Of a stretch of DNA of 64,000 nt, positions 20,351 to 51,790 are shown one piece after another. Under the pieces are notes generated by a model. The model saw nothing but the letters and a program-made list of their open reading frames with translations, searched no databases and had not been told where the DNA came from. Position 1 is the first letter of the stretch. Each line of letters begins with the position of its first letter. The stretch is from the NCBI GenBank assembly GCA_000270325.1, contig BA000048.1, positions 1,605,481 to 1,669,480 on the forward strand, written 5' to 3'. The stretch is from Candidatus Caldarchaeum subterraneum (GTDB lineage: Archaea > Thermoproteota > Nitrososphaeria_A > Caldarchaeales > Caldarchaeaceae). The position numbers and the translations under genes are program-made.

Positions 20351-20356
20351 TCATTC

Positions 20357-29747: not shown

Positions 29748-29782
29748 GACAAAAATACAAAAAAATTGTTGAGAGTTTTTGT

Positions 29783-34033: not shown

Positions 34034-35397
34034 TTGTCTGGGTCTGTTCTGCTCAAAGGCGGGATAATTGTTACGATGGATGGGGCCCGTCGTGTAATCG
34101 TGGATGGGGCTGTTGGGTTCGAGAACGGTGTCATCACTTTCGTGGGCAAGTCTGAAGAAGCGACGAAGGCTGGAAGGTTTGACAGGGTTTTGGATGTTTC
34201 GGGAAGGTTTGTGATGCCGGGGCTTGTCTGTGCACACACTCATCTCTACGGCATAGCTCTGCGAGGCGCCTCTCTCCGCATAAGGCCGACGACGGATTTT
34301 CTCGAGAACCTGCAGAGGATTTGGTGGCCGCTGGATGAACGGATGGACAACGAAGACGCCTATGCCACGGCCTTGGCCGCGTGCATGGAGATGGCTCTCA
34401 ACGGGACAACGACCTTCGCCGACACATACTCTGCTCCACCACGTCCAGAGGGCAGCCTAGACGCCATAGCCAAAGCGGTTAACGAGGTGGGTATACGCGG
34501 GGTGATATCATTTGAGGCGACGGAGAGAAGAAGCGTGGAGGAGGGGCGGCGAGGGCTTGAGGAGAACATTAGGTTTCTCTCGAAAGGCGGCGAGGGCTTG
34601 GCCAAAGGCATGATAAGCCTCCACGCATCTTTCACAATCTCCGACGACCTCATCGTACGCGGTGTCGAGGCTGCGAAGAAATTCAACGCACCCATAACCA
34701 TCCACGTCTCAGAGGGCCCCAACGATGTTTACCACAACATCGAACGCTATGGCAAAAGAACGGTTGAGAGACTGAGAGACACCGGTCTCCTCGGGCCTTC
34801 AGCGGTTTTAGCCCACTGTGTGCACTTGAACAGACGTGAGATACAGCTTCTCACCGAAACAGGGACAAGTGTGGCCCATAACCCGATGAGCAATATGCTC
34901 AACGCCGTCGGGGTGATGAAGCTTCCCGAAATGCTCGAAGCAGGTGTGAACGTGGGCATCGGCAACGACGGCTACATATTCGACGGCTTCGAGAACATGT
35001 GCACAGCTTTCCTTATACATCGCGTGGACCGGAGAGACCCTTCCATACTCTCGCCCCAGAAGGTTTTGGAGATGGCGACAGTCGACGCTGCACGGGCTTA
35101 TGGTCTGCGTGATGTGGGCTCGCTCGAGGTGGGTAAGAAAGCGGACATAATAGTGGTGAGGCCCGAGGTCAAGGCAACACCCATGGATAGAAACGTTTAC
35201 GGCTATCTTGTCAACGGTGTAAGGGGTAGAGACGTGAGCATGTTTTCGTCGACGGTGTTCAAATAATTGGCGGTAGAAGGTTCACTCGTTTGGACAAGGA
35301 GAGGGCTGAGGAAAAAATCTTGAAAACCGTGGAGCGGCTGTGGAGTAGGTTGGGCGAGGAGCCGGGAGAGGCTGTTGAGCCGCTAAGGTTGATGTGA
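34034..35397 (+). pseudogene. amidohydrolase (SsnA/MtaD/guanine-deaminase-like chlorohydrolase family) with apparent -1 frameshift near 35230-35241; C-terminal 45 codons continue in another frame to stop 35395-35397
   Basis: PGLVCAHTHLYG metal-binding start; frame-0 ORF ends 35266; a second frame reads HVFVDGVQIIGGRRFTRLDKERAEEKILKTVERLWSRL (typical family C-terminus) and ends 1 nt before the next gene's ATG. Confidence 0.65.
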
Positions 35398-35398
35398 A

Positions 35399-36232
35399 AT
35401 GAGCACGCTAGGTTATCTCGGGATTCCAAGGATTGAGGTGATGATTCCCAGCAGCGTCGAAGAGGCATTAAACCTGCTGCAAACTCATCCAGACGCGGAG
35501 ATACTTGCCGCCGGAACACACATCATAACACAGCTTACACTCGGAATCAAGCGCACCCGCAAATACATCGACATAAACAACCTCCACCAGCTCCGCAAAA
35601 TCTCCCACCATCACGGCACAGCATCAGTAGGCTCGCTTGTAACACATCAAGAACTTGCAGCTACTCTGATGAACCAAGTTCCCGCATTCACAGCCTTTCT
35701 CCAAAAATACTCCTCTCCAGCCGTGGCCAACAGAGCCACTGTAGGGGGAAGCATCATGCTCCGACTCGCAGGCGAAGACTTGATTCCAATACTGTTGACA
35801 CTCGACGCTGAGCTTTCCTTCGCCACCTTAGAGGGTGTGAAAAACATTCCGCTTAAAGCTTTTCTCGCCCGAGGATTTGATGGAAGAGGGCTGCTTCAAA
35901 CCATCTCCTTCAAGCTAAACAGCTCGTGTTTCTTCGACAAGCTTTGGATGGGTGTGTCACGTATTCCTCTTATCTCTATCGCAGTTTCGCGTGACGGGGC
36001 TGATGGGGTGCGTGTCGCGGTTTCTCACAAGGATGGCTCAACGCCGGGCCGTGTGGCAGCTGTTGAGAAGTTTCTCTCCATGCATGGCTTGTCGGAAGAG
36101 GTCGTTGAGAAGGCTTCGAGGTTGATGATGGATTCTATAAACCCGGAGTCGGATGTTTTAGCGTCTTCATGGTATCGTAGGAGGGCTGCGGGTGTTTTGC
36201 TTAAGCGTCTTCTTCAAAACTTGAGAGGGTGA
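35399..36232 (+). CDS. xanthine dehydrogenase family, FAD-binding subunit (CoxM/XdhB-like)
   Basis: FAD_binding_5-type; AAGTH...; ATVGGSI motif. Confidence 0.85.
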   Translation: MSTLGYLGIPRIEVMIPSSVEEALNLLQTHPDAEILAAGTHIITQLTLGIKRTRKYIDINNLHQLRKISHHHGTASVGSLVTHQELAATLMNQVPAFTAFLQKYSSPAVANRATVGGSIMLRLAGEDLIPILLTLDAELSFATLEGVKNIPLKAFLARGFDGRGLLQTISFKLNSSCFFDKLWMGVSRIPLISIAVSRDGADGVRVAVSHKDGSTPGRVAAVEKFLSMHGLSEEVVEKASRLMMDSINPESDVLASSWYRRRAAGVLLKRLLQNLRG

Positions 36233-36238
36233 GGATGG

Positions 36239-36694
36239 ATGAAGGCTGAGCTCATGGTTAATGATGTAAAATACGTGGTCGAGGTTGAGCCTAATGAGAG
36301 ACTGAGCGATGTTCTGCGGAGAAAGCTGGGGTTTGTAAGCGTGAAGGAAGGATGCGGCGTGGGCGACTGCGGCCTCTGTATAGTTTTGATTGACGGGAGG
36401 CCTGTTAACTCTTGTTTAGTGCTTGCCTATCAAGCGTCGGGGCATAGGATTACAACCGTGGAGGGCATGGGTGATGGTTCACGACTTCATCCTCTACAGC
36501 AAGCCTTCATAGACGTTGGCGCGGTTCAGTGTGGCTTCTGCATCCCAGCGGCCCTGCTCGTCCTCAAACACCTCCATGAAAACAACCCAGACGCCAGCAG
36601 GGAAGAGGTTAGACATGCTCTCAGAAGCGTCCTGTGTAGATGCGGCAGCTATTTACGGTTTGAAGAAGCCTTCAAACAGGTGAGCAGGCGATGA
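36239..36694 (+). CDS. xanthine dehydrogenase family, [2Fe-2S] subunit (CoxS/XdhC-like)
   Basis: CGVGDCGLC and CGFC cysteine clusters. Confidence 0.9.
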   Translation: MKAELMVNDVKYVVEVEPNERLSDVLRRKLGFVSVKEGCGVGDCGLCIVLIDGRPVNSCLVLAYQASGHRITTVEGMGDGSRLHPLQQAFIDVGAVQCGFCIPAALLVLKHLHENNPDASREEVRHALRSVLCRCGSYLRFEEAFKQVSRR

Positions 36695-39015
36695 GCGAGG
36701 AAATAGCGAGACGGTTCAGGGAAATTCTGGAGGCCCGTGAATTCCTCATAGTCGGGAAAAAGGTTGCACGTGTAGACGCCCTCGACGCGATTCTCGGCAA
36801 ACCACTATACACAGCGGACCTCGTCTCAGGAAAAACACTCTACGTCAAAGCCGTCCGCTCCAAGATACCCCATGGCTACATCAGGAAAATAGACACGTCC
36901 CAGGCGGCTTCCCGGCAAGGTGTCGTCAAGGTGCTTACGCATCGGGACATACCCGGAGTAAACGACGGGGGAAGCCTGATAAGTGATAGACCTCTGCTGG
37001 CTTTTGAGAAGGTTAGACACGTCGGGGAAGCTGTTGCTCTCGTGGTCGGTGAGAGCTTGGAGGCTGCGGAGGAAGCGGCTGAACATGTGGAGATTGACTA
37101 TGACCCGCTTCCAGTGGTGACCAACCCTCGCGACGCCATGAAACCAGACGCTCCGCGGATACAGGACAGAGACAACGTGGTTACACACTTTAAGATAAGA
37201 AAAGGCGATGTGGAAAAGGGTTTCAAAGAATCCGATGTCGTCATCGAGCGGACATATCGCACACAGTTCATCACAGGTCTGCCTCTAGAGACAGAGATAG
37301 CATATTCTTTCCTAGAGGACGGAGGAAGGATTACATGCATAGTCTCAACCCAGAACCTCTACGATGTCTACAACAAGGTGGTGAAGATACTCGGCGTCCC
37401 CTCTGAAAAGCTGCGGGTGATTCAGGCGGCTACTGGAGGAGGCTTCGGCCCGAAAAGCGATGAGACACCGATAGACGTCGCAGCATACGCATGCCTCGCG
37501 ACATATTTCACCGGAAAACCTGCGCTGGCGGCGTTCAGCAGAAGCGAAGCGATGACGGTTCAGTGTAAACGCCATCCTTTTGAGATAACCAACATGGTTG
37601 GGGCGAGAAATGATGGAAAGCTGTTGGCTTGGCGGTCGACGCTTATCGAAGACACAGGCGCCTACATTTCGAAGGGTCACCTCGTCATCGGCCGCGCAAC
37701 CTTCCATTGCACGGGACCCTATGAGGTGCCGAATGTCTGGGCCGATGGCTACTGCGTCCTCACCAACAACACGATGGCGGGGTCTACACGTGGCTTCGGG
37801 GCGCCGCAGGCACATTTCGCGGCCGAGAGCGTGTTGAACGAGCTCGCCGAGGAGCTGGGCCTCTCGCCGCTTGAGATACGTGAGATAAACATGCTCCGCC
37901 CCGGCTCCCTCACAGCCACAAGCCAGAAAATCGAAGACGACGGCCTACTAAAGTGTTACCAGAGAGCTGTCGAGGAAAGCGAGTGGGAGAAGCGTGTGAG
38001 AGAAATACAGGAATTCAACAAAACAAACAAGGTCCTGAAAAAAGGTATTGGTATAGCGATGCTTTACCATGGCAACACTCTTGGACCAGAGGGCGACGAT
38101 TTCGCGACAGTGGTCACCTACGTTGAGAGAGACGGAAAAGTCGTTGTCCAGACAGGTTTAACAGAATACGGAACCGGGGCCCTAACCTCCCTCGCAATAG
38201 TTACAGCAGAAACACTCGGTCTACCGTTATCCATGGTGAAGCTCGAGAGACCCGACACAGCCGCCGTCCCCAACGCAGGGCCCACAGTCGCATCACGGAC
38301 AACCGTCATAGGAGGCCAGGCAGCCCTAGACGCCGCCCTCAAGATAAGGGCTATGGTTGCGCAGGTGGCTGCCAAGATGCTTTCATCCAATCCCGCGGAT
38401 TTGGAGTTCAGAGACGGGCTGGTGAAGGCTAATGGAAGGGCAGTGACTTGGAATGAAGTAGTTAACCAGTGTTTTGAGGAGAACATTTCTCTCCGCGTTG
38501 TTGGCTACTACATGGCTCCTCCGACCAAATGGGACCCTGAGACGGGCCAGGGAGCTCCCTACAACCAATACACCTACGGCGCGCTCGTCGCTGAGGTGAC
38601 CGTCGACACAGAGACTGGCATGGTCAAGGTTGATAGGCTAACCGCAGCATACGACGTGGGCCGCGCAATAAACCCGCTTGGGCTGGTCGCTGTCTATGAG
38701 GGGGGAAGCATCATGGGCCAAGGATACGCTTTGATGGAGAAGATTGTGCACGACGACGGTGTAGTCATCAACCCAAACCTGCACACATACATCATCCCAA
38801 CTGCCTCAGACGCCCCCGAAGAAATCCGCAGCATCATCGTCGAGGTCAAGGGCAGCATGGGTGTCTTCGGAGCCAAAGCCATGGGAGAAATACCCGTCGT
38901 CCTCCCCGCAGCATCAATAGCCGCAGCCGTTGCAAACGCCACAGGCATCTACATAAGGGAGCTACCGCTAACACCTCAAAGAGTGCTTGAGGAGCTCCAC
39001 AAATCCAGACAATAA
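36691..39015 (+). CDS. xanthine dehydrogenase family, molybdopterin-binding large subunit
   Basis: 774 aa; aldehyde oxidase/XDH a/b hammerhead + MoCo domains (GGGFG motif). Confidence 0.9.
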   Translation: MSEEIARRFREILEAREFLIVGKKVARVDALDAILGKPLYTADLVSGKTLYVKAVRSKIPHGYIRKIDTSQAASRQGVVKVLTHRDIPGVNDGGSLISDRPLLAFEKVRHVGEAVALVVGESLEAAEEAAEHVEIDYDPLPVVTNPRDAMKPDAPRIQDRDNVVTHFKIRKGDVEKGFKESDVVIERTYRTQFITGLPLETEIAYSFLEDGGRITCIVSTQNLYDVYNKVVKILGVPSEKLRVIQAATGGGFGPKSDETPIDVAAYACLATYFTGKPALAAFSRSEAMTVQCKRHPFEITNMVGARNDGKLLAWRSTLIEDTGAYISKGHLVIGRATFHCTGPYEVPNVWADGYCVLTNNTMAGSTRGFGAPQAHFAAESVLNELAEELGLSPLEIREINMLRPGSLTATSQKIEDDGLLKCYQRAVEESEWEKRVREIQEFNKTNKVLKKGIGIAMLYHGNTLGPEGDDFATVVTYVERDGKVVVQTGLTEYGTGALTSLAIVTAETLGLPLSMVKLERPDTAAVPNAGPTVASRTTVIGGQAALDAALKIRAMVAQVAAKMLSSNPADLEFRDGLVKANGRAVTWNEVVNQCFEENISLRVVGYYMAPPTKWDPETGQGAPYNQYTYGALVAEVTVDTETGMVKVDRLTAAYDVGRAINPLGLVAVYEGGSIMGQGYALMEKIVHDDGVVINPNLHTYIIPTASDAPEEIRSIIVEVKGSMGVFGAKAMGEIPVVLPAASIAAAVANATGIYIRELPLTPQRVLEELHKSRQ

Positions 39016-39269
39016 AACACCTGCAACACCGTGAAAAACCCAGCGAGCAAGGCACACGTGTAAATACCTCCTAAACCTATTCATGATTGAGAGGGCGCGG
39101 CCCTTTGGAAACAATAGTCGGTGGCGACGTAAAAATTCATGAAGACTGTTTGAGGCTGGACAAATACTTCGACAAGCTATCCTGACGTGTGGGAATCAGG
39201 TATGCCCGAGGAATATTTTTCTGAAAGTGAGGCGGCGGAGGCCATCACGAGGGCTGAGAATGTTTTGGG

Positions 39270-39566
39270 TTGGGTGAGGTCGAGATGGGGGTCTTTGAGA
39301 AAAGAAAGATGATGAGAAAGGCGGCGGTTGAAGCTGCTGTTGAAGCGGTCGAGTTAGTGGAGAAGATTGTGGGCCCTGTTTCGGCTGCTTTGATAGGCTC
39401 ATACGCGAGAGGAGACTTTAATCAGTGGAGCGACGTGGACCTGCTTGTAGTGTCTCCAAGGTTTGCACCGACTCCTCTCAACAGGTTTGATCAGGTCGCC
39501 GATGTTTTGAAAAAGTTTCCAAGCCTTGAGATAATACCTTTGACGCTGAGAGGCAGAGAAGGCTGA
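39270..39566 (+). CDS. minimal nucleotidyltransferase (MNT) domain protein
   Basis: GSYARGDF...SDVDLLVV motif; ~98 aa. Confidence 0.7.
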   Translation: MGEVEMGVFEKRKMMRKAAVEAAVEAVELVEKIVGPVSAALIGSYARGDFNQWSDVDLLVVSPRFAPTPLNRFDQVADVLKKFPSLEIIPLTLRGREG

Positions 39567-39728: not shown

Positions 39729-40748
39729 ATGACTCTGACGGAGCTGTTTGGCAGGGACCTGATTTCTTCACAGGATTGGAGTATTGAGGAGATCGATGCG
39801 GCGATGGATTTGGCGCGGAGCTTGAAGATTGCCAGGGCCTCTGGAAATGTTCCCGAGCTTTTCAAGAACAGGACCATGTTCATGCTCTTCTACAACACCA
39901 GCACAAGGACGAGGGCGAGTTTTGAAGCAGCCGCGACCATGTTGGGAGGACACGCCCAGTTCATCGACTTCGCCACCACACGCGGGGCAGAGGGAGAGTC
40001 GGTCAAGGACATAGCCAAGATGTATGAGAGGCTGGGCCATGTCCTCGGCGTCCGGATACTCGAGTCAGCTGTGGACTATGTCTATGGGAGAGGGAACGCT
40101 GTCGTTAGAGAGTATGCGGAGCACGCGAAAATTCCCGTCATCAACATGGCTGATGACATGTTTCACCCTAGCCAAGCCATCACAGACCTCTACACGTTGC
40201 GGGAGAAGCTTGGACGGGTTGAGAAGAAAAAATATGTCTTGATGTGGGCTTATAGCGACAAGGTTCGCAGCTGGGGAAGCATACAGGATGAGATGCTGAT
40301 AGCCACCCGATATGGCATGGATGTTGTCCTCGCTTATCCTCCTGGCTTCGACATAGACGAGAACCTTGTGAAGCTTGCGAAAAAGAACGCTGAGGAGAGC
40401 GGCGGCACGCTGACCATCAGCCACAATTACAAAGAGGCGCTGGAGAACGCGGATGCTGTTTTTCCGAGAAGCTGGGCAAGCCACGAATGTGTAATCACAG
40501 GCATGAATAGGTTCGGCCGGGAAAGAGAAATCGAGTTGCACAACAAATACAGGGATTGGAAGCTTACACGTGAGTTGACAGACCTCATGTCGCGGCATGG
40601 TATAGTGACGCATGTGCTCCCCGTGTTCCGTGGACAGGAGGCTGATGACGATGTCATGGACGGGCCGCGAAGCGTGATCTACGACCAGGCCGAGAACCTA
40701 CTCTATGTAAGAGCGGCTATACTGTCGCTAGTGGCTGGAAAAATTTAG
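39729..40748 (+). CDS. YgeW-type transcarbamylase-family protein (not OTC/ATC; substrate unknown)
   Basis: STRTR carbamoyl-P motif, HPSQ; lacks OTC DxxxSMG and HCLP (has RSWASHE, HVLPV); WAYS...GMDVVLAYPPGFDI resembles YgeW as recalled. Confidence 0.75.
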   Translation: MTLTELFGRDLISSQDWSIEEIDAAMDLARSLKIARASGNVPELFKNRTMFMLFYNTSTRTRASFEAAATMLGGHAQFIDFATTRGAEGESVKDIAKMYERLGHVLGVRILESAVDYVYGRGNAVVREYAEHAKIPVINMADDMFHPSQAITDLYTLREKLGRVEKKKYVLMWAYSDKVRSWGSIQDEMLIATRYGMDVVLAYPPGFDIDENLVKLAKKNAEESGGTLTISHNYKEALENADAVFPRSWASHECVITGMNRFGREREIELHNKYRDWKLTRELTDLMSRHGIVTHVLPVFRGQEADDDVMDGPRSVIYDQAENLLYVRAAILSLVAGKI

Positions 40749-41701
40749 GGAATAAAGTGGGTTCCCGCCGAGCCTTTTAAAGCTTCCTTAAATTGAGAAA
40801 GCTCGGCGATCACTGCCTCTTTGCCGCCTGCCTCGATGAACCTAATGCAAGCCAACACCTTGGGAAGCATCGAGCCTGAGCCGAAATGTCCCTGCTCGAG
40901 GTAGCGTCTCGCCTCAGCCGCTGACACTTTCTCCAGCTTCTTCTGGTCGGGTTTTCCAAAGTTTAGGTAGGCTCCGTCGACATCCGTCAGAATGATGAAA
41001 CGGTCCGCCCCGATTAATTCGGCTAGCCTCTCGCCGGCGAGGTCTTTGTCGATTACAGCCTCCACTCCATATGCTTTGCCGTTTTCTTCAACTATCGGTA
41101 TTCCGCCTCCGCCGCTTGCCACAACTATGAACCCTTCGTCAACCAGCTTCCTTATAGCATGTCTCTCGGCGATGATTTTTGGGTCGGGTGACGGCACCAC
41201 CCTTCTCCAGCCTCCGCGGGCCTTGTCCTCCACGAAAACGTACTCGGGATGCTCCGCCTTGATCTTCTCCATCTCCTCTTTTTTGTAGAATGGGCCGATG
41301 GGTTTGGTCGGGTTGCTGAACGCTGGGTCGTTTTTGTCGACGATCACCCGTGTCACGACGGTTATTACGTATTTGTCGATGCCGCGTCGCTTGAGCTCGT
41401 TGCGGAGGTTTTGCTGGATGATGTAGCCTATGAAGCCCTGTGTCTCGGCTCCGCAGGCATCCATGGGGAATGCCGGGATGTTGTGTAGCTTCTGGCCAGC
41501 GTCATGACGTAGTAGTGTTGCACCGACCTGTGGGCCGTTGCCATGGGTGATGACAAGCCGGTGACCAGCTTCAACGATGTCGGCGAGATACTTAGCCGCC
41601 TCACCCACGTTCTTATACTGCTCCTCGAAAGACCCCTTGTCACCTCTTCTCAAAAGCGCGTTGCCTCCAAGAGCCACAACGATGAGCTCGCTTCTATCCA
41701 T
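40745..41701 (-). CDS. arcC: carbamate kinase
   Basis: N-terminal VVALGGNAL...ITHGNGPQVG; full-length 318 aa. Confidence 0.9.
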   Translation of the reverse strand: MDRSELIVVALGGNALLRRGDKGSFEEQYKNVGEAAKYLADIVEAGHRLVITHGNGPQVGATLLRHDAGQKLHNIPAFPMDACGAETQGFIGYIIQQNLRNELKRRGIDKYVITVVTRVIVDKNDPAFSNPTKPIGPFYKKEEMEKIKAEHPEYVFVEDKARGGWRRVVPSPDPKIIAERHAIRKLVDEGFIVVASGGGGIPIVEENGKAYGVEAVIDKDLAGERLAELIGADRFIILTDVDGAYLNFGKPDQKKLEKVSAAEARRYLEQGHFGSGSMLPKVLACIRFIEAGGKEAVIAELSQFKEALKGSAGTHFIP

Positions 41702-41718
41702 GTCGGCATCACTTTTTT

Positions 41719-42963
41719 CTATGATAAATACTTCATCAGCTCACTCAGAGAGGGGCGTATGAGCGGAAGCTCGGCTGTGGAGGCAACTTTCTCCGGTTCT
41801 TTCAGCCCCGAGGCGGTCACCAGAACAACCACCGTGTCCGAGGCTTCTACAACTCCTTGTTCAAGGAGTTTCTGGACAGCGGCCACCCCCACGGCGCCTG
41901 ATGGCTCGGCAAAAACCCCTTCAAGACGGGCCAGCTTCTTTACAGCCTCTCTAATTTCATCCTCTTCAACTGCGACAGCCGTTCCACCGGTTGTTCTCAC
42001 ACCCTCCATCGCCGCGTCACCGTCCCATGGATAGGGGTCGAGAAGACCTGATGCTATGGATTTGGGCCACTTTTCCGGCTCGACCTCCTCGAATCTTTTG
42101 CCTTGAAGAATTGCTCTGACGAGAGGCATGTTTCCGCTGGGCTGGACCGGCACCAACTTGGGATAGCTCTCGATTAACCCGAGTAGACGCAGTTCTTTCA
42201 ACGCTTTCCATATTCCTGTGGCGAGGCAGCCCGAGCCCGTTGGGATGAAGACAAAGTCGGGAACACCCCAGCCCATCTGCTCAACCATCTCATATACGAT
42301 GGTTTTGGGCCCCTCGACTTGGTACGGGTTGAAGGGGCCGAAGCTTGGGCAGGGGTACCAGCCCAGCTCTTTGACAGTCTGCATCATAAGGTCAACCGTT
42401 GGGTCACGTCCCTCTTCGACCTGCTTGACGCGTAGAACCCTCGCACCATAGAGCAAAAGCTGCGAGGCCTTCCCCATCGCAACGTCCTCTGGAACAAAAG
42501 CCGTGCACCGTAGACCAAGAGAGGCGCTGTAAGCGGCCAGAGAAGATGCAGCGTTACCGCTCGAGGCTATGACCACATCCCTTCTACCCATTTCAACAGC
42601 CTTCGCGGCGCCCACAGCCATCGCACGGTCCTTGAACGACGCCGTCGGGTTACGCGTCTCATCCTTGAGAAAAAGCCTCTTGACACCGAGTTCTCCGCCG
42701 AGTCGCTGAGCATGGAGCAAAGGCGTGTTACCTTCACTTAGTGGAGAAGCGTAACGCTGGTCAACGGGGATAAGCTCCCAGTAACGCCAAACCCCTCTTG
42801 GAGCACGCTTCTCAATCGAGGCCTTGGAAAAAGACTCGGCTACCCGGTCATAGTCGTAAACTATGTCCAAGCGGCCGTTGTCGTTTTTTCTGCAGAGGAT
42901 TGGGTTGCTCGACGGATGGTATTCTGTCCCGCATCGTGAACAAACCATTTTTTCGACAAACAA
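41719..42963 (-). CDS. threonine-synthase-like fold-type-II PLP enzyme with N-terminal zinc ribbon
   Basis: SFKDRAMA lysine motif; N-terminal CSRCG...C; 414 aa. Confidence 0.7.
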   Translation of the reverse strand: MFVEKMVCSRCGTEYHPSSNPILCRKNDNGRLDIVYDYDRVAESFSKASIEKRAPRGVWRYWELIPVDQRYASPLSEGNTPLLHAQRLGGELGVKRLFLKDETRNPTASFKDRAMAVGAAKAVEMGRRDVVIASSGNAASSLAAYSASLGLRCTAFVPEDVAMGKASQLLLYGARVLRVKQVEEGRDPTVDLMMQTVKELGWYPCPSFGPFNPYQVEGPKTIVYEMVEQMGWGVPDFVFIPTGSGCLATGIWKALKELRLLGLIESYPKLVPVQPSGNMPLVRAILQGKRFEEVEPEKWPKSIASGLLDPYPWDGDAAMEGVRTTGGTAVAVEEDEIREAVKKLARLEGVFAEPSGAVGVAAVQKLLEQGVVEASDTVVVLVTASGLKEPEKVASTAELPLIRPSLSELMKYLS

Positions 42964-42967
42964 GCGG

Positions 42968-43399
42968 CTACACCCTGTTAATGCTGAATCTGCAGACGCC
43001 TCCGCCCGCTGCTCTGCAAAGCTCCTCCTGAACAGTTACACCCCTGCCGTAGACCGACTCAGCTATACCGGCTATAATCCCCGAGAGGAAACTACACGCA
43101 GGCGTTTTCTCATGCTCCAGACCCTCGCAGAAAACACAATTCTCGAAAACCACCACCATTTTCCCGACTGTCTCGAAGTTGTCGCTGACGGTTATCTTTC
43201 CCCAGCCTGACCTCTGCGCAGCCTTTGCCAGAAGCTCAACAGCCTCCCCCGATGTCTTCGCCATACTCTTTGTCCTCCTCCCCAACGCAAAACCATACTT
43301 GTTGCCCATGTGCCACAGCAAAGTGTCAACAGCGGGCCTCGACATAGACTCTGAGAGAAGAACCCGCATCTCGGCGAAAAGCCTCCCAGACAGCACCAA
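42968..43399 (-). CDS. V4R (4-vinyl reductase) domain protein
   Basis: V4R cysteine pattern C.FC.G...C. Confidence 0.65.
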   Translation of the reverse strand: MVLSGRLFAEMRVLLSESMSRPAVDTLLWHMGNKYGFALGRRTKSMAKTSGEAVELLAKAAQRSGWGKITVSDNFETVGKMVVVFENCVFCEGLEHEKTPACSFLSGIIAGIAESVYGRGVTVQEELCRAAGGGVCRFSINRV

Positions 43400-43472
43400 T
43401 ACTCTGCCGCCGAGTAAAGGGTCTTTGACAATTCCATGCGTGTCGTCGTATTCGAACCCCGCTATATCCCTA

Positions 43473-44501
43473 TCACCTAATTATCTCAAGCCTCTGTAAA
43501 TGCTTCTCCCTGACGGTTTTCGTGTATTCGTCTAGGGGATGCTCACGCTCGGGGACGGTGGTTTTCTTACCCTCGCCATACAGCTCCGTTGAGAGATATC
43601 TGTTACCTGAGTCGCATATCAGTGTCACTATTTTTCGTAGGTTTGGATGCTTTTTGGCGACTTTGACCGCGGCGGCGACGTTGCATCCAGAGGATATCCC
43701 GCCAAATATTCCTTCGAGGCGTGCTAGCTGTCTAGCCATCGCGATTGACTCGTCGGAGGTTGTTGTCACTACTCCGTCGCATACGCCGAGGTCTAGGTTG
43801 CGGGGTATGAAGCCGTCGCCTATGCCCTCGATTTTGTGTGAACCCCATCTGCCTTCGCTTATGATGGGTGCTTCGCTGGGCTCGACTGTGTATATCTTCA
43901 CACTCGGGTTCTTCTCTTTGAGAAATTTTCCTACTCCGCTGACTGTTCCTCCTGAGCCCTGCGACATCACGAAAGCATCCACTTTGCCTTTTGTCTGCTC
44001 CCATATCTCGGGCCCCGTGGTTTTGATGTGGGCTTGGATGTTGTCGGGGTTGGTGAACTGGTTGGGGAACCAGTATTTGCCCGGGTTTTGCCTCATCATT
44101 TCCTCGGCTTTTCTGAGGCTGAGGTCGACATCAGACTCTGCGCCCGGTGTGAAGACGAGGTTGCCGCCGAAAGCTTTTATCAGCTGTTTACGTTCCTCGC
44201 TCATTCCCTCGGGCATAACTATGGTGACCCTGTAGCCGAGATGTGTTCCGACAAAGGTGCATGCTATACCTGCGTTGCCCGTCGAGACCTCGAGAATCTC
44301 CATCCCCGGTCTGAGGTCACCCCTCTCAATGGCCTTCGTTATCATCTCGCGGTATATGCGGTCTTTTAGGCTGCCCGAGGGGTTGTAGAACTCGAGCTTA
44401 GCCCATATCTCCGCCTCTACTCCATGTTGTTTCTCAATATGTCGTAGTCTGAGAAGGGGTGTGTTGCCTATGAGGTCGAGAATGTCTTCACCTGTTCTCA
44501 T
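43473..44501 (-). CDS. cysK: cysteine synthase / O-phosphoserine sulfhydrylase family (fold-type-II PLP)
   Basis: GNTPL, SxKDR, TSGNAG-like motifs. Confidence 0.85.
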   Translation of the reverse strand: MRTGEDILDLIGNTPLLRLRHIEKQHGVEAEIWAKLEFYNPSGSLKDRIYREMITKAIERGDLRPGMEILEVSTGNAGIACTFVGTHLGYRVTIVMPEGMSEERKQLIKAFGGNLVFTPGAESDVDLSLRKAEEMMRQNPGKYWFPNQFTNPDNIQAHIKTTGPEIWEQTKGKVDAFVMSQGSGGTVSGVGKFLKEKNPSVKIYTVEPSEAPIISEGRWGSHKIEGIGDGFIPRNLDLGVCDGVVTTTSDESIAMARQLARLEGIFGGISSGCNVAAAVKVAKKHPNLRKIVTLICDSGNRYLSTELYGEGKKTTVPEREHPLDEYTKTVREKHLQRLEIIR

Positions 44502-45574
44502 CTTCTTCCCATCGTCATAGACATGACTGCTTTCTGCACGTGCAGCCTGTTCTCAGCCTGTTGGAAGTAGAGCGAGTAGCGTGGGCTGTCTATAACCTCG
44601 TCGACAACCTCCTGGCCTCTGTCGGCTGGGCCGCAGTGCATGTATTTGCCTCTGTTGGTCAAATCCATCAACTCGGGAGTGGTTATCCAGTTTTTGAACT
44701 GGTCCTGATACTTCATAGCTCCTTCCTTGTCAACGGTTGAGTTGTATGGTGGGAAGAATTTCTTCGGAGACCATGCTTTTGGATAGACAAAGTCCGCTCC
44801 TTCGAAGGCTTCTTTCATGTCGTTTGTGATGGTGAAGGAGCCGCCGTACTGCTCCACGTTTTTCTTGCACGCTTCTATGACGTGGTCCTCGAGCTCGAAG
44901 CCGGGTGGATGAGCTAGGACAACATCCATGGCGAATTGTGTGCCTATGAGTATGCAGCTTTGGGGGACGGCGAGGGGCTTCAAGCCTCCTGAGTAGGCGT
45001 AGGAGACGACGAATTTTTTGCCGCGGGGCTTGGGTGCAACATCCTGTATAGCCATCATGTCTGCGAGGGCTTGGAACGGGTGGTAAATGTCGTCCTCCAT
45101 GTTGAGGACAGGAATAGTCGCCCATTTTGCGAACTCTTGAATGACCCTGTGGCCTCTGCCGATGTGCCACTTCGCCGCGTCACCATAAATCCTGACAGCT
45201 ATTGCGTCGCCATATGTGCTGAGAACACGTGCCACGTCTGCAATGGATTCTGTCTGATAGGGTATCATGTCCTCGGGAAGTGTTGGTGTATAGACGTCCG
45301 AGGGGCTGAGGAAATGTGCGTGACCACCTAGCTGATATATTCCGGCTTCGAAGCTGTTGCGGGTGCGTAGTGAGCGGTTGTAGAAGAGCATGAAAAGCGT
45401 CTGTCCTTTGAGATACTCTGTGGGTTTGCGTGCACGGAATTTTTCCCGCAGGTCTCGTGCAGCCTTGAGAATGTTGTTTATCTGCTCTTGGCTGTAGTCG
45501 TTTGTGTTTAGGAAATCTTTTCCACGAAGGGCTCCTATGTAGGATGGTTTTCCTGCTTTAGTTTTCTTAGCCAT
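44498..45574 (-). CDS. YgeW-type transcarbamylase-family protein (paralog 2)
   Basis: SLRTR motif, HPFQ, ...VYPKAWSP..., MHCGPAD...; lacks OTC/ATC specificity motifs; resembles E. coli YgeW as recalled. Confidence 0.75.
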   Translation of the reverse strand: MAKKTKAGKPSYIGALRGKDFLNTNDYSQEQINNILKAARDLREKFRARKPTEYLKGQTLFMLFYNRSLRTRNSFEAGIYQLGGHAHFLSPSDVYTPTLPEDMIPYQTESIADVARVLSTYGDAIAVRIYGDAAKWHIGRGHRVIQEFAKWATIPVLNMEDDIYHPFQALADMMAIQDVAPKPRGKKFVVSYAYSGGLKPLAVPQSCILIGTQFAMDVVLAHPPGFELEDHVIEACKKNVEQYGGSFTITNDMKEAFEGADFVYPKAWSPKKFFPPYNSTVDKEGAMKYQDQFKNWITTPELMDLTNRGKYMHCGPADRGQEVVDEVIDSPRYSLYFQQAENRLHVQKAVMSMTMGRR

Positions 45575-45599: not shown

Positions 45600-46934
45600 T
45601 TATAGATTTATCAGGAATGAGATGAGGGCCCAGAGGAAGAATCCTGCGGCGTGTAGCAGTCCTGTGAAGGTTGCGACATTGATGTTGGACGCGAGGGCTG
45701 GAATCATTAGATATGGGTTGCCGTATGTTTGGGCAACGTTTCTAACTGTTGAGATGGCTTTGGGGATTGTGGCGAGTGCTATCAGTGTCGTCGGCGGAGC
45801 CAGTCTTAGAACCACAGCGGCAACTATTACGGCGTAGGTGGCTGCGAGAGATAGCTTGTATCCTTTGAGAACGTTTTCTTTGGAGAGACGTGTTACCAGT
45901 GTATGTTTGCCTGCTGCTTTGTCGTAGGGTGCGTCGGGTATCTCGTTGACGTAGAGAATGAGCATGATGAGTATGCCTATGGGTATCGAGGCAAGGAGGG
46001 CCTCGGGCGAGAAAAACTGTGTCTGGACGTAGTGGCTTCCGAGAACGATGATTGGGCCGAAGCCTATCCCAACAGCTACCTCGCCCAACCCTCTGTAGGC
46101 AAGCTTGAGAGGCGGAGCTGTGTAGAAGATGCTTATCAAAACACCTGTTGTCATTACCGCCAGTATCGGGATGAGGCCCCTGAGAAAAGCGAGGTAGAGG
46201 CCTATTGCTATGCCGACGCCGTAGAAGAGCACGATTAGCGTTAGTAGTTGCTTGGGTGTCATTAGGCCGTAGTGTAGTATTCGGGAGCCTCCGCTGAAGG
46301 GTGTTGGCGTGATGTTGGCGGGGTCTGCTCCTAGCTTTGTGTCGTAGTAGTCGTTGGCCATGTTGAGGGCGAGGTGTATCAGGCTGGCGCCTATCAGGGT
46401 TAAGATGAAAAGCAGCGGGTCGAAGTAGCCGAGGTAGGCGGCTGTGCCTACTCCTATGAGGACGGGCGCGGCTGTGGCTGTGAGGAATGGGAACCGTGTT
46501 GCTCTGAAGAGAAGCTGGAGTGTTGGAAGCCGCGGTTTAACCTGCCTGCCCACAGCCTCGCTCAACCGTCTCACATAGCTTTTAGCCTGCGGAACTCTTT
46601 CCTCACAGTACTGGAAGAAGGGTTTGGTTTTCTCGTCCCAGCCATACTGCTTGTATGGTTTGAAGATAATGGTGTTGCCCTCTGTGACGGCTTCGCCCTT
46701 CATCATCAAGTATCTTCTGTCGGTGTATCCGCCTGTGGGCAGGGGTGTTATGTGGTTCAGGAGGACGGTTATTTTCTTGGGTGGGCTGAGGTATGGCGGT
46801 TTTTCGAGGACGAGTTTGCCTTCGCTGTATCTCATGGTTGTGGAGAAGCTCATCGGGTAGCCGTCCTGGTCAAGGTATGAGACAACCACGTCGCTGTATT
46901 TCTCTATCTCGACCGCGATGCTCATGCTCTCCAC
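45600..46934 (-). CDS. UbiA-superfamily prenyltransferase with N-terminal PNPOx-like (FMN-binding split-barrel) domain
   Basis: N-terminal ~150 aa PNPOx-like; C-terminal 8-9 TM with NDYYDTKLGAD aspartate-rich motif. Confidence 0.7.
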   Translation of the reverse strand: MESMSIAVEIEKYSDVVVSYLDQDGYPMSFSTTMRYSEGKLVLEKPPYLSPPKKITVLLNHITPLPTGGYTDRRYLMMKGEAVTEGNTIIFKPYKQYGWDEKTKPFFQYCEERVPQAKSYVRRLSEAVGRQVKPRLPTLQLLFRATRFPFLTATAAPVLIGVGTAAYLGYFDPLLFILTLIGASLIHLALNMANDYYDTKLGADPANITPTPFSGGSRILHYGLMTPKQLLTLIVLFYGVGIAIGLYLAFLRGLIPILAVMTTGVLISIFYTAPPLKLAYRGLGEVAVGIGFGPIIVLGSHYVQTQFFSPEALLASIPIGILIMLILYVNEIPDAPYDKAAGKHTLVTRLSKENVLKGYKLSLAATYAVIVAAVVLRLAPPTTLIALATIPKAISTVRNVAQTYGNPYLMIPALASNINVATFTGLLHAAGFFLWALISFLINL

Positions 46935-47395
46935 CTCAGCGGCTCCCTTGACAAATCACCATCGGGCCACAGTAGCAATTCTCTCGGCTCAATCTCTATC
47001 ACTGCTCTTTCCCAGAAAAGTGGGAGAGCAACCCTCTGCTTGATGAAGGCCTCTATGTATGGCTCCTTCGCCCGCCACAGCTCGACGAGCCACTCCCAGC
47101 CGCTGTGAAGGTTTTCCTCGTAGATTTTCGCGTCGCCTTTTACATGCAGTAGAGAATATCGCGGCGTTTTGATGAATGGTCGGCCGCTGAAAAGCACACC
47201 GACCTTTGGGTTCTGTTTGATGTAGTTGATTTTCTTGCTGAATAGTATGCTGGATGTCATGTAGAGTTTTTTGCGTTCGCGGCTATAGAGAGGAAGCATG
47301 GGGTTTGTCAAGACCTCTCCAGAGGGAGTTATGACGCTTAAGGAGGAGACCAAGGCGTTCTCCATTATCTCCTCGGCTTCCTCGAAAATGTTCAT
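46922..47395 (-). CDS. pyridoxamine 5'-phosphate oxidase-like FMN-binding split-barrel protein
   Basis: PNPOx-like pattern; 13-nt overlap with downstream UbiA-fusion gene. Confidence 0.65.
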   Translation of the reverse strand: MNIFEEAEEIMENALVSSLSVITPSGEVLTNPMLPLYSRERKKLYMTSSILFSKKINYIKQNPKVGVLFSGRPFIKTPRYSLLHVKGDAKIYEENLHSGWEWLVELWRAKEPYIEAFIKQRVALPLFWERAVIEIEPRELLLWPDGDLSREPLRWRA

Positions 47396-48590: not shown

Positions 48591-49991
48591 TTAGGATGTC
48601 CTTTGACGATAGTGTTTACGGATGTGTTCCTCCTTGATTTTGGTCAGCTCCGTCTCTGGCAAACTTGAGAGAATATCCCACGCGATTTCAAGCGACTGGT
48701 CAAGGGTGCGGTTTTCGTTGGAGCCTTGGCGGAGGAAACGCTGCTCAAACAGGTCGCCGAACTCGAGATACTTGAGGTCTGTTTCGGAGAGGCCTGATTT
48801 TCCGACGATTTCTGCGAGGGAGCGTAGCTGGACAGCTCTGGCGTAGGCTGCGTAGAGCTGGTTGCTGACGTCTCCGTGGTCTGCTCTTGTCTTCTTCTGC
48901 GAGATGATGCCGGGGCCCATGAGCCTGCTTAGGCTCATCAAGACGTTGATGGGTGGGTAAATGCCTTTCCTGTAAAGGTCGCGTGAAAGAACTATCTGGC
49001 CCTCTGTGATGTAGCCGGTTAGGTCAGGTATAGGATGCGTGATGTCGTCGCTGGGCATGCTTAGGATGGGCATCTGAGTGAGGCTGCCCTTAAGACCCTT
49101 TATCCTCCCAGCCCTCTCATACAACGAAGCAAGGTCCGTGTACATGTAGCCGGGATAACCTTTTCGGCCGGGAACCTCCTCACGCGCCGCACTGACCTCA
49201 CGCAAGGCCTCCGCATAGTTTGTGATGTCTGTGATGATGACGAGCACGTGGTAGCCCTGTTTGAAGGCGAGATACTCGGCCAAGGTGAGGGCTATTCGGG
49301 GTGTGACTATTCGTTCGATGGCTGGGTCGTCGGCTAGATTGAGAAAGAGGGCGCTCCGTTTGATGGCGCCGCTTTCCTCGAGGCTTCTTCTAAAGTAGCG
49401 GGCTTCGTCGTTCTGGACTCCGACTGCCGCGAAGATTACGGCAAACTCTTCCTCCTTGCCTGGGACTGTTGCCTGCCTCGCTATCTGGGCTGCGAGCATG
49501 TTGTGGGGAAGACCTGCTCCAGAGAAGATTGGCAGCTTCTGGCCGCGGACGAGGCTGTTCATGCCGTCTATCGCCGATATGCCCGTTTGGATAAAGTCTG
49601 ACGGGTATTCGCGTTGCTCGGGGTTGATTGGCTCGCCGTTGACATCGAGCACGTCCTCGGCTATGGGGTCGGGTAAGCCGTCTATGGGTCTGCCCAACCC
49701 GTCGAAAACCCGGCCGAGCATCTCGGTGGATACAGGCGTCTCCATGGTTCTGCCGAGGAAACGAGCCTTTGTCCCCGCTATTCCGAGACCCTGTGTCCCT
49801 TCGAAGACCTGTACAACGGCGCGGCCCTCGCTCACCTCAATAACTCTGCCGAGCCGCCGCTCACCGTCAACGGTCTCAACCTCAACCAGCTCATCATAGC
49901 CCACCCCCGAAACTCCGCCGACAACCATCAACGGGCCCTTAATCTCCTGAATAGAGAGATATTCTACACCGCTTCTCTCGGCCGCCATCAA
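48591..49991 (-). CDS. atpB: A-type ATP synthase subunit B
   Basis: Non-catalytic A1 B-subunit pattern; coupled to atpA. Confidence 0.95.
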
Positions 49992-51790
49992 GCCTTCACC
50001 TCCACCTTCTCCCCATAAGCCAGCTTCTCAAACGTGTCAACCATAGCCTTCTCAAGCTCATCCAAAAGCTCAAGCCTGTTGTTTGGAACCTCGTACTTTG
50101 CTCTGATGAGCTTCGAGATTATGGGGAGGGAGCGGATATCTTTGAGAGCCACTCCTTTTCTCAGCGCTTCTTCGGCGAGCTTGTGGAACATGACGAAGAG
50201 TCTGAGCAGCTTGTATTGTTTCGGCGGAGGGCAGTAGGCGTCAACCTCGTCGTAGGCGCTCTGCTGCAGGAACCCCTCGCGAATCATCCGCGCCACGTCT
50301 ATGATGAGCTTCTCCTCATCCGGCAAAGCCTCGGGCCCAAGCAGTCTCACAAGCTCGAGCAAGTCAGCCTCTCTCTGGAGAAGCCGGTAGGCCTGGTAAC
50401 GCTGCTCATACCAATCCACAGTAACGTTTTCAGCCCACCATTTCCGCACCGTCTCAACATATCCCGAGTAGCTGGTAATCCAGTTGATTGCCGGGTAGTG
50501 GCGTGTGTATGCTAGGTTGGCGTCGAGGGCCCAGAATGTTCTGATAAACCTCATGGTGTGTGTTGTCACGGGTTCGGTGAAGTCTCCACCCGGCGGGCTC
50601 ACAGCGCCCACAAGAGTGACGCTTCCAATTCTCTCAGGGTTTCCGAGCGTCACCACACGGCCAGCACGTTCATAGAACTCGGCCAATCTGCTCGCTAGGT
50701 AGCTGGGGTAACCTTCCTCGGCCGGCATCTCCTCTAGTCTTCCGCTGATCTCGCGGAGGGCCTCTGCCCAGCGGCTGGTGGAGTCCGCGACGAGCAATAC
50801 ATCATAGCCCATGTCTCTGAAGTATTCCGCCATGGTTACGCCTGTGTAGATGCTGGCTTCGCGGGCCGCCACGGGCATGTTGCTGGTGTTGGCGATGAGT
50901 ACTGTTCTCTCCATGAGCGGCCTGCCTGTTGCTGGGTCTTTGAGGTGTGGGAACTCGGTCAAAACCTCCGACTCCTCGTTGCCACGTTCTCCGCAGCCGA
51001 CGTGAAAGATGACTCGTGTATCGCTCCATTTTGCGAGCTGGTGAAGCGTGACGGTTTTGCCTGTGCCGAAGGCGCCCGGTATGCATGCTGTCCCACCCTT
51101 GGAGATTGGGAAAAAGGTGTCCAGAACACGCTGACCGGTTATGGTGGGGACTTCGGGGTCAAGCCTCCTGTTGAAGGGTCTCGCTCTTCTAACGGGCCAG
51201 TTGTGATAAAGTCTGAGGTCTGTGGAGCCTTCTCTTGTCTCAAGAGTTGCCACCGTGTCCTCTATGGTGTATTCGCCCTCTGGAGCGATGTAGGTAAGTT
51301 TGCCGCGCTTCGCGTAGGGTGGTACCATTATCTTGGAGACGACTAACGGTGTTTCAGGCACCTCTCCTATGATGTCGCCGGGTCCAACCTCGTCACCCTT
51401 CTTCACAACTGGCGTGAACTTCCATTTTTTGTTCCTTGGCAGAGGGTCTACTTTGATTCCTCTCTTGATGAAGCCTGTTGAGATTTTTCCAATTGCGTCG
51501 AGAGGTCTCTGTACACCGTCGTAAATGCTGCCGAGCATGCCAGGGCCCAGAGAAACTGATAGCGGCGAACCTGTTGATTCCACGGGCTCGCCGGGCCTCA
51601 GCCCGCTGGTGTTCTCGTAAACCTGTATAAACGCGACATCCCCCGTGAGCTTGATAATTTCACCAATCAGCCTCTCCTCGCCAACATACACCGTTTCATA
51701 CATCTTCGCACCCATCATGCCGTCGGCTTTCACAGCAGGCCCAGCAACCCAGACAATCTTACCACGAACAGTGCTCATGTTTGAAACCAC
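49988..51790 (-). CDS. atpA: A-type ATP synthase catalytic subunit A
   Basis: Walker A GAFGTGKT, 600 aa; TATA (TTTAAATAATT) at 51815-51826 on the minus strand. Confidence 0.95.

Follow-up and report, generated by a model that had tools for sequence, protein, structure and literature searches.

Two divergent archaeal transcarbamylase families in a putative purine-degradation locus of Candidatus Caldarchaeum subterraneum

What do two dissimilar transcarbamylases do near a single carbamate kinase in an archaeon? The question is raised by a 64,000-nt stretch of Candidatus Caldarchaeum subterraneum DNA (contig BA000048.1, positions 1,605,481 to 1,669,480; the window), in which six open reading frames (ORFs) fill positions 39729–45574 (Table 1). 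The two outermost ORFs encode the carbamoyltransferases TC1 and TC2. A preliminary description of the sequence regarded these as divergent YgeW-type paralogs bracketing a carbamate kinase, and proposed that they act on two different carbamoylated intermediates, such as those bearing the C2 and C8 ureido units of a purine. Two carbamoylated, purine-derived intermediates are the best-supported reading, since they fit the 2,3-diureidopropionate pathway and the upstream enzymes encoded in the window. The interpretation was also right to tie non-OTC, non-ATC transcarbamylases to a catabolic kinase, but it missed the wider purine cluster, and its assignment to the YgeW family failed.

The TC1 and kinase genes are convergent and overlap by 4 nt, as first described, with both stop codons within TTAG at 40745–40748. 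The kinase does lie between TC1 and TC2, but 'bracketing' was loose because three genes between the kinase and TC2 had been overlooked, encoding a ThrC-like enzyme, a V4R-domain protein and a CysK-like enzyme. The TC2 stop overlaps the start of the CysK-like gene by 4 nt, and the remaining gaps on the minus strand are 4–73 nt; the kinase, ThrC-like, V4R, CysK-like and TC2 genes apparently form one operon. The kinase is a true arcC equivalog above the TIGR00746 cut-off, with 47% identity to E. coli YqeA, the urate-cluster kinase. The ThrC-like enzyme matched Pfam PALP and NF006050 (324 bits; cut-off 303), and its top PDB match was Aquifex ThrC (2zsj). The CysK-like enzyme matched TIGR01139 (364 bits; cut-off 351), and its top PDB match was CysK (2egu). 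The V4R protein is possibly a ligand-binding or regulatory component.

Both carbamoyltransferases matched Pfam OTCace_N (E-values 1e-36 for TC1 and 4e-40 for TC2) and OTCace (6e-33 and 3e-34). In the transcarbamylase superfamily, SxRT, HPxQ, HxLP and a beta-4 Arg bind carbamoyl phosphate (PMC4581275). TC1 carries S58-T-R-T, R109, H146/Q149 and HVLP, and TC2 carries S68-L-R-T, R128, H165/Q168 and HCGP; the two domains and these motifs place both proteins in the superfamily. The S(T/L)RTR and HP(S/F)Q motifs were present as reported, as STRTR/HPSQ in TC1 and SLRTR/HPFQ in TC2. Relative to HCLP, Cys is replaced by Val in TC1 and Leu by Gly in TC2, each change being invariant within its own family. 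The hallmarks of TC1 (STRTR, NMADD-HPSQ, FPRSWAS and HVLPVFRGQEA) were invariant in 18 orthologues from at least six archaeal lineages, and those of TC2 (SLRTR, NMEDD-HPFQ, AYSGGLKPLAVPQ, VYPKAWSP and MHCGPADRGQE) in 19 sequences. TC1 and TC2 are divergent paralogs with 38% identity (131/343, E 7e-87). A recent duplication is ruled out because of this low identity and because each copy has separate orthologues across archaeal classes; the recent identical duplicates that the preliminary description had allowed for were not found, and the pocket residues have diverged as well.

We aligned TC1 and TC2 with E. coli YgeW, ArgI and PyrB, Xanthomonas AOTCase and Pyrococcus OTCase, and compared them with each characterised class. 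OTCase was rejected: the ArgI YTDVWVSMG site reads VFPRSWASHEC in TC1 and VYPKAWSPKKF in TC2, so that DxxxSMG is absent; both have Asn where OTCase has Lys in FxKxSxRT, and OTCase models scored 205–229 bits against cut-offs of 281–306. ATCase was rejected because neither protein has the RxQxER motif or an Arg at the R167 position; TC1 has RFGRER (Gly for Gln), which its orthologues do not conserve, no comparable sequence occurs in TC2, and ATCase models gave 103–140 bits (cut-offs 237–263). The alignment thus bore out the earlier statement that both proteins lack DxxxSMG, HCLP and the aspartate-binding residues of ATC. PTCase is marked by Gln in FxQxSxRT, a 230's-loop (Y/W)(G/W)(V/L/I)x and about 20 extra C-terminal residues; TC1 and TC2 have Asn in place of that Gln and no C-terminal extension, and scored 203–205 bits on TIGR04384 (cut-off 500). 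The N-acetylornithine carbamoyltransferase (AOTCase) model was the best NCBIfam model for both (NF003384: TC2 283.6 and TC1 223.1 bits, cut-off 288); AOTCase itself was rejected, as its specificity residues W77, E92, N185 and K302 are not kept in either protein.

SOTCase binds the succinyl group through H176, R178 and R278. The position of AOTCase R298, which corresponds to SOTCase R278 approximately, by motif spacing and with no SOTCase sequence aligned, is Asp318 in TC2 and Phe300 in TC1. At the discriminating positions TC2 has T, P and E, near the SOTCase pattern (A/S/P/V/Q, P, V/I/E), and it shares SLRT with SOTCase; similarity of both proteins to SOTCase structures was low (72–95 bits). 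The 80's loop is long in TC2, as in AOTCase, and short in TC1, as in YgeW and OTCase, but with Arg85.

YgeW orthology was ruled out by scores of 146–157 bits on NF005538/TIGR03316 (cut-offs 453 and 500) and by missing insertions. The YgeW 240's-loop insertion (LLRANDHEGLKAL) and C-terminal extension are absent from TC1 and TC2, which are 339 and 358 aa long compared with 396 aa for YgeW. Identity to E. coli YgeW was 29–31%, and to ArgI 25–29%. Several of the blocks that the preliminary description likened to YgeW (for example WAYS..., KPLxVPQ, VYPKxW and MHCxPAD) do resemble it in the alignment; VYPK(A/S)W(S/A), which had been ascribed to both proteins, holds for TC2 (VYPKAW), but TC1 has VFPRSWA, with Arg for Lys. 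'YgeW-type' is therefore wrong as a family assignment and reasonable as a functional analogy. By these sequence measures, TC1 and TC2 are not members of any characterised specificity class, and form two separate ancient families, so far found in archaea and metagenome contigs. Current databases label members of both as 'ornithine carbamoyltransferase', 'N-acetylornithine carbamoyltransferase' or 'hypothetical protein'.

Where do the two families stand in the superfamily? In family profile HMM searches, the reciprocal TC1/TC2 scores were highest (325 and 284 bits), AOTCase and Pyrococcus OTCase scored 222–245 bits, and YgeW about 167 bits. A neighbour-joining tree with only seven reference sequences gave each family 100% support and grouped TC1, TC2 and YgeW with 86% bootstrap, contrary to the profile ranking; the phylogeny suggested in the preliminary description thus upheld the two families, but its YgeW grouping disagrees with the profile scores. 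The nearest solved structures by sequence were Xanthomonas AOTCase and Pyrococcus OTCase, with YgeW (3q98, 2yfk) at about 125–131 bits. The AF2 models were of moderate quality (pLDDT 73 and 77). Foldseek placed AOTCase first for both; AOTCase/YgeW-type chains matched best, with Pyrococcus OTCase almost as close. Both proteins have an extended 120's loop of AOTCase length. The proline-rich-loop site has the right length in both, reading GGLKPLAVPQ in TC2 (two Pro) and DKVRSWGSIQ in TC1 (no Pro). TC1 and TC2 are, as judged from sequence, sister families and each other's closest relatives, near AOTCase, archaeal OTCase and YgeW, and probably lie on the knotted AOTCase/SOTCase/YgeW side of the superfamily.

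The specificity positions of AOTCase and YgeW were taken from a family review (PMC4581275). TC2 has kept AOTCase E144 (E160), K252 (K266), C294 (C314) and R322 (R343), where TC1 has Ala141, Arg247, Val296 and Leu324. At W77, E92, N185 and K302, TC2 has Thr, Thr, Pro and Glu, and TC1 has Thr, a gap, Ser and Glu. The YgeW D334 position is Asp318 in TC2 and Phe300 in TC1, and the Q98 position is Thr98 and Arg85, respectively. Apart from Leu324, which varies within the TC1 family (L in 11/18, R in 6/18, G in 1/18), these states were invariant or nearly so among the 18 TC1 and 19 TC2 orthologues. All second-substrate positions examined differ between TC1 and TC2, with each state fixed in its own family, for example A141/E160, R247/K266, F300/D318 and R85/T98 (TC1/TC2). 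Residues common to TC2 and YgeW are K203, P204, K270, D334 and E344. The TC2 pocket is acidic (E160, D318 and E322, with K199 and K266), and the TC1 pocket is more basic and hydrophobic (R85, A141, R180, R247 and F300). This predicted contrast is compatible with two different substrates, perhaps one with a free amine and one without.

A pathway with two ureido groups to remove is known in bacteria. In 2025, two groups described a reductive urate route in E. coli and Clostridium: 2,8-dioxopurine is formed, reduction follows, and ring opening by SsnA and HyuA gives 2,3-diureidopropionate (PMC12507026; bioRxiv 10.1101/2025.04.24.650524). YgeW phosphorolyses one ureido group of this compound and YqeA yields ATP, YgeY hydrolyses the other ureido group, and YgeX turns diaminopropionate into pyruvate; the cluster comprises an XdhD-type Mo enzyme, a dearomatising reductase, SsnA, HyuA, the transcarbamylase/UacY, YgeY, YgeX and the kinase (PMC12507026; bioRxiv 10.1101/2025.04.24.650524). 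Both ureido groups derive from purine ring carbons, and the two groups differ on which one YgeW attacks (PMC12507026; bioRxiv 10.1101/2025.04.24.650524; commentary PMC12990295). In Chloroflexota clusters, an F420-dependent luciferase-family enzyme occurs in place of YgfK (PMC12507026). According to the commentary, the pathway is confined to anaerobic bacteria (PMC12990295). Archaea are unmentioned in PMC12507026 and bioRxiv 10.1101/2025.04.24.650524, and our literature search found no description of an archaeal cluster.

The window holds several parts of such a cluster: an XDH-family Mo hydroxylase, an LLM (luciferase-like) F420-dependent oxidoreductase and an SsnA-like amidohydrolase, together with the transcarbamylases and the kinase. 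In tblastn searches of the window with E. coli urate-cluster proteins, YgeW-, YqeA-, SsnA-, XdhA/XdhD- and YgfM-like genes were found; HyuA, YgeY, YgeX and YgfK had no match at E < 1e-3. The XDH Mo subunit shares 33% identity with E. coli XdhA and 30% with XdhD. The LLM oxidoreductase, whose gene adjoins an SsnA-like gene in L013, L044 and further loci (L-numbers label the compared loci and contigs), is by analogy a candidate 2,8-dioxopurine reductase in YgfK's stead. The SsnA-like protein is 32% identical to E. coli SsnA. Its gene has a 1-nt deletion near 35235 (GACG-TGAGC versus GACGTTGAGC in the 99%-identical contig L001), which leaves an ORF of 410 aa instead of the intact 454 aa with an end near 35400; this frameshift is either an assembly error or a strain pseudogene. 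Genes for adenine deaminase and a Bmp/PnrA-type ABC transporter are divergent from the plus-strand LLM, SsnA-like and XDH genes. From its domain composition, the transporter probably serves purine or nucleoside uptake, and it is syntenic in those Caldarchaeum loci with long enough flanks (L018, L019, L022–L024 and L026).

About 16 kb upstream of TC1 lies an operon for an Asp/Glu/hydantoin-racemase-family protein and Hydantoinase_A and Hydantoinase_B proteins, an ATP-dependent hydantoinase/oxoprolinase set (Table 1). One may guess that it supplies hydantoin ring opening and stereochemistry. A tie to the module stays a guess because no homologues of the racemase or of Hydantoinase_A/B were found within 10 kb of TC1 in the fetched loci.

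Is the gene set conserved? A scan of one genome per species yielded 328 TC1 relatives, and the best 80 (57–99% identity) were analysed. They came from Caldarchaeales, Nitrososphaerales, Conexivisphaerales, Bathyarchaeia, Hadarchaeota, Micrarchaeia, Baldrarchaeota and Hodarchaeaceae. Counterparts of the window proteins on Candidatus Caldarchaeum metagenome-assembled genome (MAG) contigs were 92–99% identical, and TC2 orthologues were 73–85% identical across Nitrososphaerota, Nezhaarchaeales and Hadarchaeaceae. Forty-six loci have flanks of 5 kb or more on each side, and in these we counted the neighbours lying no further than 10 kb from TC1. The kinase was near TC1 in 65% of these (30/46), the ThrC-like gene in 57%, TC2 in 54%, the CysK-like gene in 50%, an XDH Mo-subunit homologue in 52%, an SsnA-like gene in 52%, an orthologous LLM reductase in 30% and a HyuA-like gene in 11%, percentages that are descriptive only because the loci are phylogenetically non-independent. 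YgeX and YgfK were found in none of the 46, and YgeY-like genes in 4% (two weak matches). Among the 25 TC1 loci that carry TC2, 23 had the kinase, 22 the ThrC-like gene, 21 the CysK-like gene and 24 an XDH or SsnA-like gene.

TC1, TC2, the kinase and both pyridoxal phosphate (PLP) enzymes were clustered in three lineages with differing gene orders. In Caldarchaeales, LLM, SsnA, XDH and TC1 on one strand converge on kinase, ThrC, V4R, CysK and TC2. The Nitrososphaerales order is TC2, CysK, ThrC, XDH and TC1, then LLM, SsnA, a HyuA-like hydantoinase (39% identity to E. coli HyuA), a third amidohydrolase and the kinase. In Bathyarchaeia, TC2 and the kinase are divergent from TC1, after which come ThrC, CysK and an amidohydrolase, encoded on the opposite strand. 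Conexivisphaerales have ThrC, TC1 and kinase. Hadarchaeota have TC1 and then a third, non-OTC type of transcarbamylase beside SsnA-like and XDH genes, with adenine deaminase also present in L075. In L013, a Nitrososphaerota MAG, LLM, SsnA and ThrC-like genes are consecutive, with HyuA-like, adenine deaminase and TC2 genes nearby; the metagenome contig L096 combines two sets of XDH genes with LLM, adenine deaminase, SsnA-like and ThrC-like genes, a TC1-type gene and the kinase. ThrC-like orthologues (48–94% identity) lie beside TC1, the kinase or SsnA in Caldarchaeales, Nitrososphaerales, Bathyarchaeia, Conexivisphaerales, Hadarchaeaceae and L096. The CysK-like gene directly follows TC2 in Caldarchaeales and Nitrososphaerales and lies within the module in Bathyarchaeia. 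The V4R gene is in the operon of L016–L027 and was undetected in Caldarchaeales L029, L034 and L035 and in other lineages. Family-level gene identities, paralogue divergence, conservation and synteny were observed directly, and the retention of the gene set despite heavy rearrangement argues for a shared function.

Some of these loci had further features. The third transcarbamylase of Hadarchaeota (L075 2189–3226, L076 6770–7804) was 41–42% identical to Pyrococcus OTCase, with IHIKSWNP and HALP replacing DxxxSMG and HCLP. Nitrososphaerales L044 (1–21014; also L038, L049 and L064) contained two XDH sets, recalling E. coli XdhABC and XdhD/YgfM, an amino-acid permease, a 317-aa protein that matches no Pfam family, and the third amidohydrolase, which is nearer guanine deaminase than SsnA. 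An extra PALP protein of 484–488 aa, 28–29% identical to the CysK-like enzyme, was encoded in L096 (13145–14611) and L097 (18539–19993), whose clusters also had a more distant LLM reductase (64% identical).

By analogy of gene content, the window cluster would be an archaeal, F420-type version of the reductive urate (2,8-dioxopurine) pathway. Purines would be imported by the Bmp-type transporter, funnelled via adenine deaminase and the XDH-type molybdoenzyme, and dearomatised by the F420-dependent LLM reductase as a YgfK stand-in. Ring opening by the SsnA-like amidohydrolase and a hydantoinase encoded elsewhere would give 2,3-diureidopropionate. TC1 and TC2 would each cleave one ureido group with phosphate, and the single carbamate kinase would use both carbamoyl phosphates for ATP formation, so that each purine would yield two ATP compared with one in E. 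coli. The ThrC-like and CysK-like enzymes would take the place of YgeX and act on 2,3-diaminopropionate or a mono-ureido intermediate. The cluster thus looks like the bacterial pathway with three substitutions: an F420-type reductase for YgfK, a transcarbamylase for YgeY, and ThrC-like plus CysK-like enzymes for YgeX. We infer which substrates are used, in what order the cleavages occur, that the direction is catabolic, and what the PLP enzymes do, including the place of the ThrC-like enzyme in the pathway. That the second transcarbamylase replaces YgeY, so that both ureido groups are phosphorolysed with a gain of ATP, seems to us evenly poised between right and wrong. More tentatively, and with somewhat less confidence, we extend the proposal to Caldarchaeales, non-ammonia-oxidising Nitrososphaerales, Bathyarchaeia and Hadarchaeota: these archaea of hot springs, soils and sediments may degrade purines by an F420-type reductive route, with two regiospecific ureido-phosphorolases doubling substrate-level ATP and ThrC-/CysK-like enzymes disposing of or salvaging the C3 skeleton, with no diaminopropionate ammonia-lyase.

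The E. coli system resembles this locus in having a kinase-linked catabolic transcarbamylase clustered with XDH and SsnA. It differs in the single transcarbamylase, in the bacterial host, in the low YgeW identity, far under the family cut-offs, and in having YgeY, YgeX, YgfK and HyuA; the window has instead an F420-type reductase and ThrC-like and CysK-like enzymes. The Chloroflexota clusters share an LLM F420 oxidoreductase beside SsnA that replaces YgfK or UacX, but the survey covered bacteria only and reported no twin transcarbamylases or ThrC/CysK-type enzymes (PMC12507026). That survey assigned neighbours from their Pfam families, so every OTCace match was taken for YgeW and every PALP match for YgeX. 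Precedents for the chemistry exist elsewhere. In Rubrobacter xylanophilus, a phosphorolytic ureidoglycine transcarbamylase with a kinase replaces a purine-catabolic hydrolase, and in Nocardioides sp. JS614 a pseudo-ATCase lies next to a YgeW homologue and xdhABC, a precedent for two transcarbamylases near XDH (PMC4016543); these enzymes differ from TC1 and TC2 in belonging to the ATCase branch and the oxidative allantoate route, with other sequences and neighbours. The arginine deiminase pathway likewise couples ureido phosphorolysis to ATP formation from carbamoyl phosphate, but with another substrate and enzyme family; the locus has no DxxxSMG and no arginine deiminase.

Several observations weigh against the proposed purine pathway. 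All substrates are read from gene context alone. The window is without a HyuA-type hydantoinase, and its SsnA-like gene is frameshifted and under the SsnA cut-off. The ThrC-like and CysK-like sequences look like ordinary threonine and cysteine synthases, so that a biosynthetic cluster also fits. TC2 was absent within 10 kb of TC1 in 21 of the 46 loci, and in 12 TC1 stood wholly alone; TC1 and TC2 also occur apart, TC2 in L011 lying beside housekeeping genes, and 11 of the loci come from Caldarchaeum species. The pairing of TC1 with the ThrC-like enzyme and kinase, and of TC2 with the CysK-like enzyme, hints at two sub-modules. Alternatively, only one transcarbamylase may be the YgeW analogue, acting on a purine-derived diureido compound. 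The other enzyme could then handle a different ureido compound, either catabolically (N-carbamoyl-beta-alanine, ureidoglycine, allantoate-type compounds or citrulline) or in ureido-amino-acid synthesis with the CysK-like enzyme. In Conexivisphaerales and related loci, the genes for TC1, the ThrC-like enzyme and the kinase form a triad of their own, with no TC2 for 10 kb around. This speaks for the alternative, as do the usual coupling of TC2 to the CysK-like gene, the occasional distance of TC2 from purine genes and the strongly different pockets; moreover, carbamoylation of diaminopropionate by OTC-family enzymes is known in antibiotic pathways (PMC4581275). We nevertheless hold this alternative to be rather unlikely: nearly all of the 25 two-gene loci have XDH or SsnA-like genes and the kinase, in Hadarchaeota, TC1 is independently joined by a different non-OTC transcarbamylase in the same surroundings, and YgeY-type hydrolases are almost always absent, so that another remover of the second ureido group is needed.

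Could the module be biosynthetic instead, with the kinase serving as carbamoyl-phosphate synthase, as in Pyrococcus, TC1 and TC2 as unconventional arginine or pyrimidine enzymes, and ordinary CysK and ThrC sharing the operon? The near-cut-off score of TC2 on the N-acetylornithine carbamoyltransferase model, the solved-structure relatives, the equivalog-level CysK-like and ThrC-like matches and the housekeeping-like conservation of TC2 would all suit such a role. Xanthomonas campestris AOTCase (ArgF', PDB 3kzc), of the knotted AOTCase/SOTCase group (PMC4581275), is the best-scoring solved relative of TC2 and shares FxNxSxRT with both proteins. TC1 and TC2 differ from it in having a carbamate kinase as neighbour and no arginine-biosynthesis genes around them. 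We consider this explanation improbable: neither DxxxSMG nor RxQxER is present, the four AOTCase specificity positions read T, T, P and E in TC2, the R298 position is Asp or Phe, no arg or pyr gene occurs in any examined flank, and the genes conserved nearby belong to purine catabolism (XDH, SsnA-like, LLM, adenine deaminase and hydantoinase). Transcarbamylase active sites lie between subunits (PMC4581275), and TC1 and TC2 co-occur in 25/46 loci, so one mixed trimer with a single activity is conceivable; it would surprise us greatly, since the window has them in separate operons, the two genes do not usually stand side by side, many genomes have TC1 but no TC2 nearby, and each protein has the full carbamoyl-phosphate-binding set.

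If the purine pathway with twin transcarbamylases holds, a conserved archaeal version would extend the range of the 2025 pathway to geothermal and sediment purine recycling, and the exchange of a hydrolase for a second phosphorolytic enzyme would be a clear case of pathway tuning for energy conservation. Two enzymes, presumably one per ureido group, would provide an experimental handle on the dispute over the first target of YgeW. The TC1 and TC2 hallmarks could also mend thousands of database annotations.

Table 1. Features of the window, with positions counted from its first nucleotide.
Feature	Position	Strand	Length	Basis or remark
ORF with ThyX (Thy1) matches	1566–2972	+	468 aa	two matched stretches
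Hydantoinase/oxoprolinase operon	19652–23973	+	Hydantoinase_A 683 aa; Hydantoinase_B 522 aa	Amdase (racemase family), Hydantoinase_A, Hydantoinase_B
Bmp/PnrA-type ABC transporter	26170–31132	-		Pfam BPD_transp_2 twice, ABC_tran, Bmp
Bmp transporter, permease	26170–27144	-
Bmp transporter, permease	27141–28205	-
Bmp transporter, ATPase	28206–29747	-
Bmp transporter, substrate-binding protein	29783–31132	-
Adenine deaminase	31163–32953	-		TIGR01178, 561 bits (cut-off 472.5)
LLM F420-dependent oxidoreductase	33023–34030	+		F420-dependent LLM families score best among NCBIfam models, none above cut-off
SsnA-like amidohydrolase	34034–35266	+		top NCBIfam model SsnA, 329 bits (below cut-off 444)
XDH-family Mo hydroxylase, three subunits	35399–39015	+		best NCBIfam models XdhB, XdhC, XdhA, all below cut-off
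XDH, FAD subunit	35399–36232	+
XDH, 2Fe-2S subunit	36239–36694	+
XDH, Mo subunit	36691–39015	+
HEPN/minimal-nucleotidyltransferase pair	39087–39566			toxin-antitoxin-like
Nucleotidyltransferase ORF of the pair	39270–39566			intact
TC1, carbamoyltransferase	39729–40748	+	339 aa	Pfam OTCace_N and OTCace
Carbamate kinase	40745–41701	-	318 aa	TIGR00746, 430.7 bits (cut-off 358)
ThrC-like fold-type II PLP enzyme	41719–42963	-	414 aa	N-terminal Cys-rich ribbon
V4R-domain protein, small	42968–43399	-	143 aa	Pfam V4R, E 2.9e-13
CysK-like fold-type II PLP enzyme	43473–44501	-	342 aa
TC2, carbamoyltransferase	44498–45574	-	358 aa	Pfam OTCace_N and OTCace
MenA/UbiA-type prenyltransferase and small PNPOx-like protein	45600–47395	-		prenyltransferase has extra N-terminal ~140 aa
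A-type ATP synthase A and B subunits	48591–51790	-		adjoins MFS and ABC-2 transporters

Other features of the window were observed in passing. The HEPN/nucleotidyltransferase pair is inserted between the XDH genes and TC1, and its HEPN gene has been cut short: compared with L001, about 197 nt are missing at about 39103. The MenA/UbiA-type gene lies directly downstream of TC2, with a small PNPOx-like protein encoded directly upstream. The MenA-like gene follows TC2 in nearly all TC2-carrying Caldarchaeales loci, lying 0.5–0.6 kb further away in L034 and L035. No other ATPase subunits were seen near the A-type ATP synthase pair. The ORF with the two ThyX stretches is about twice the usual ThyX length.

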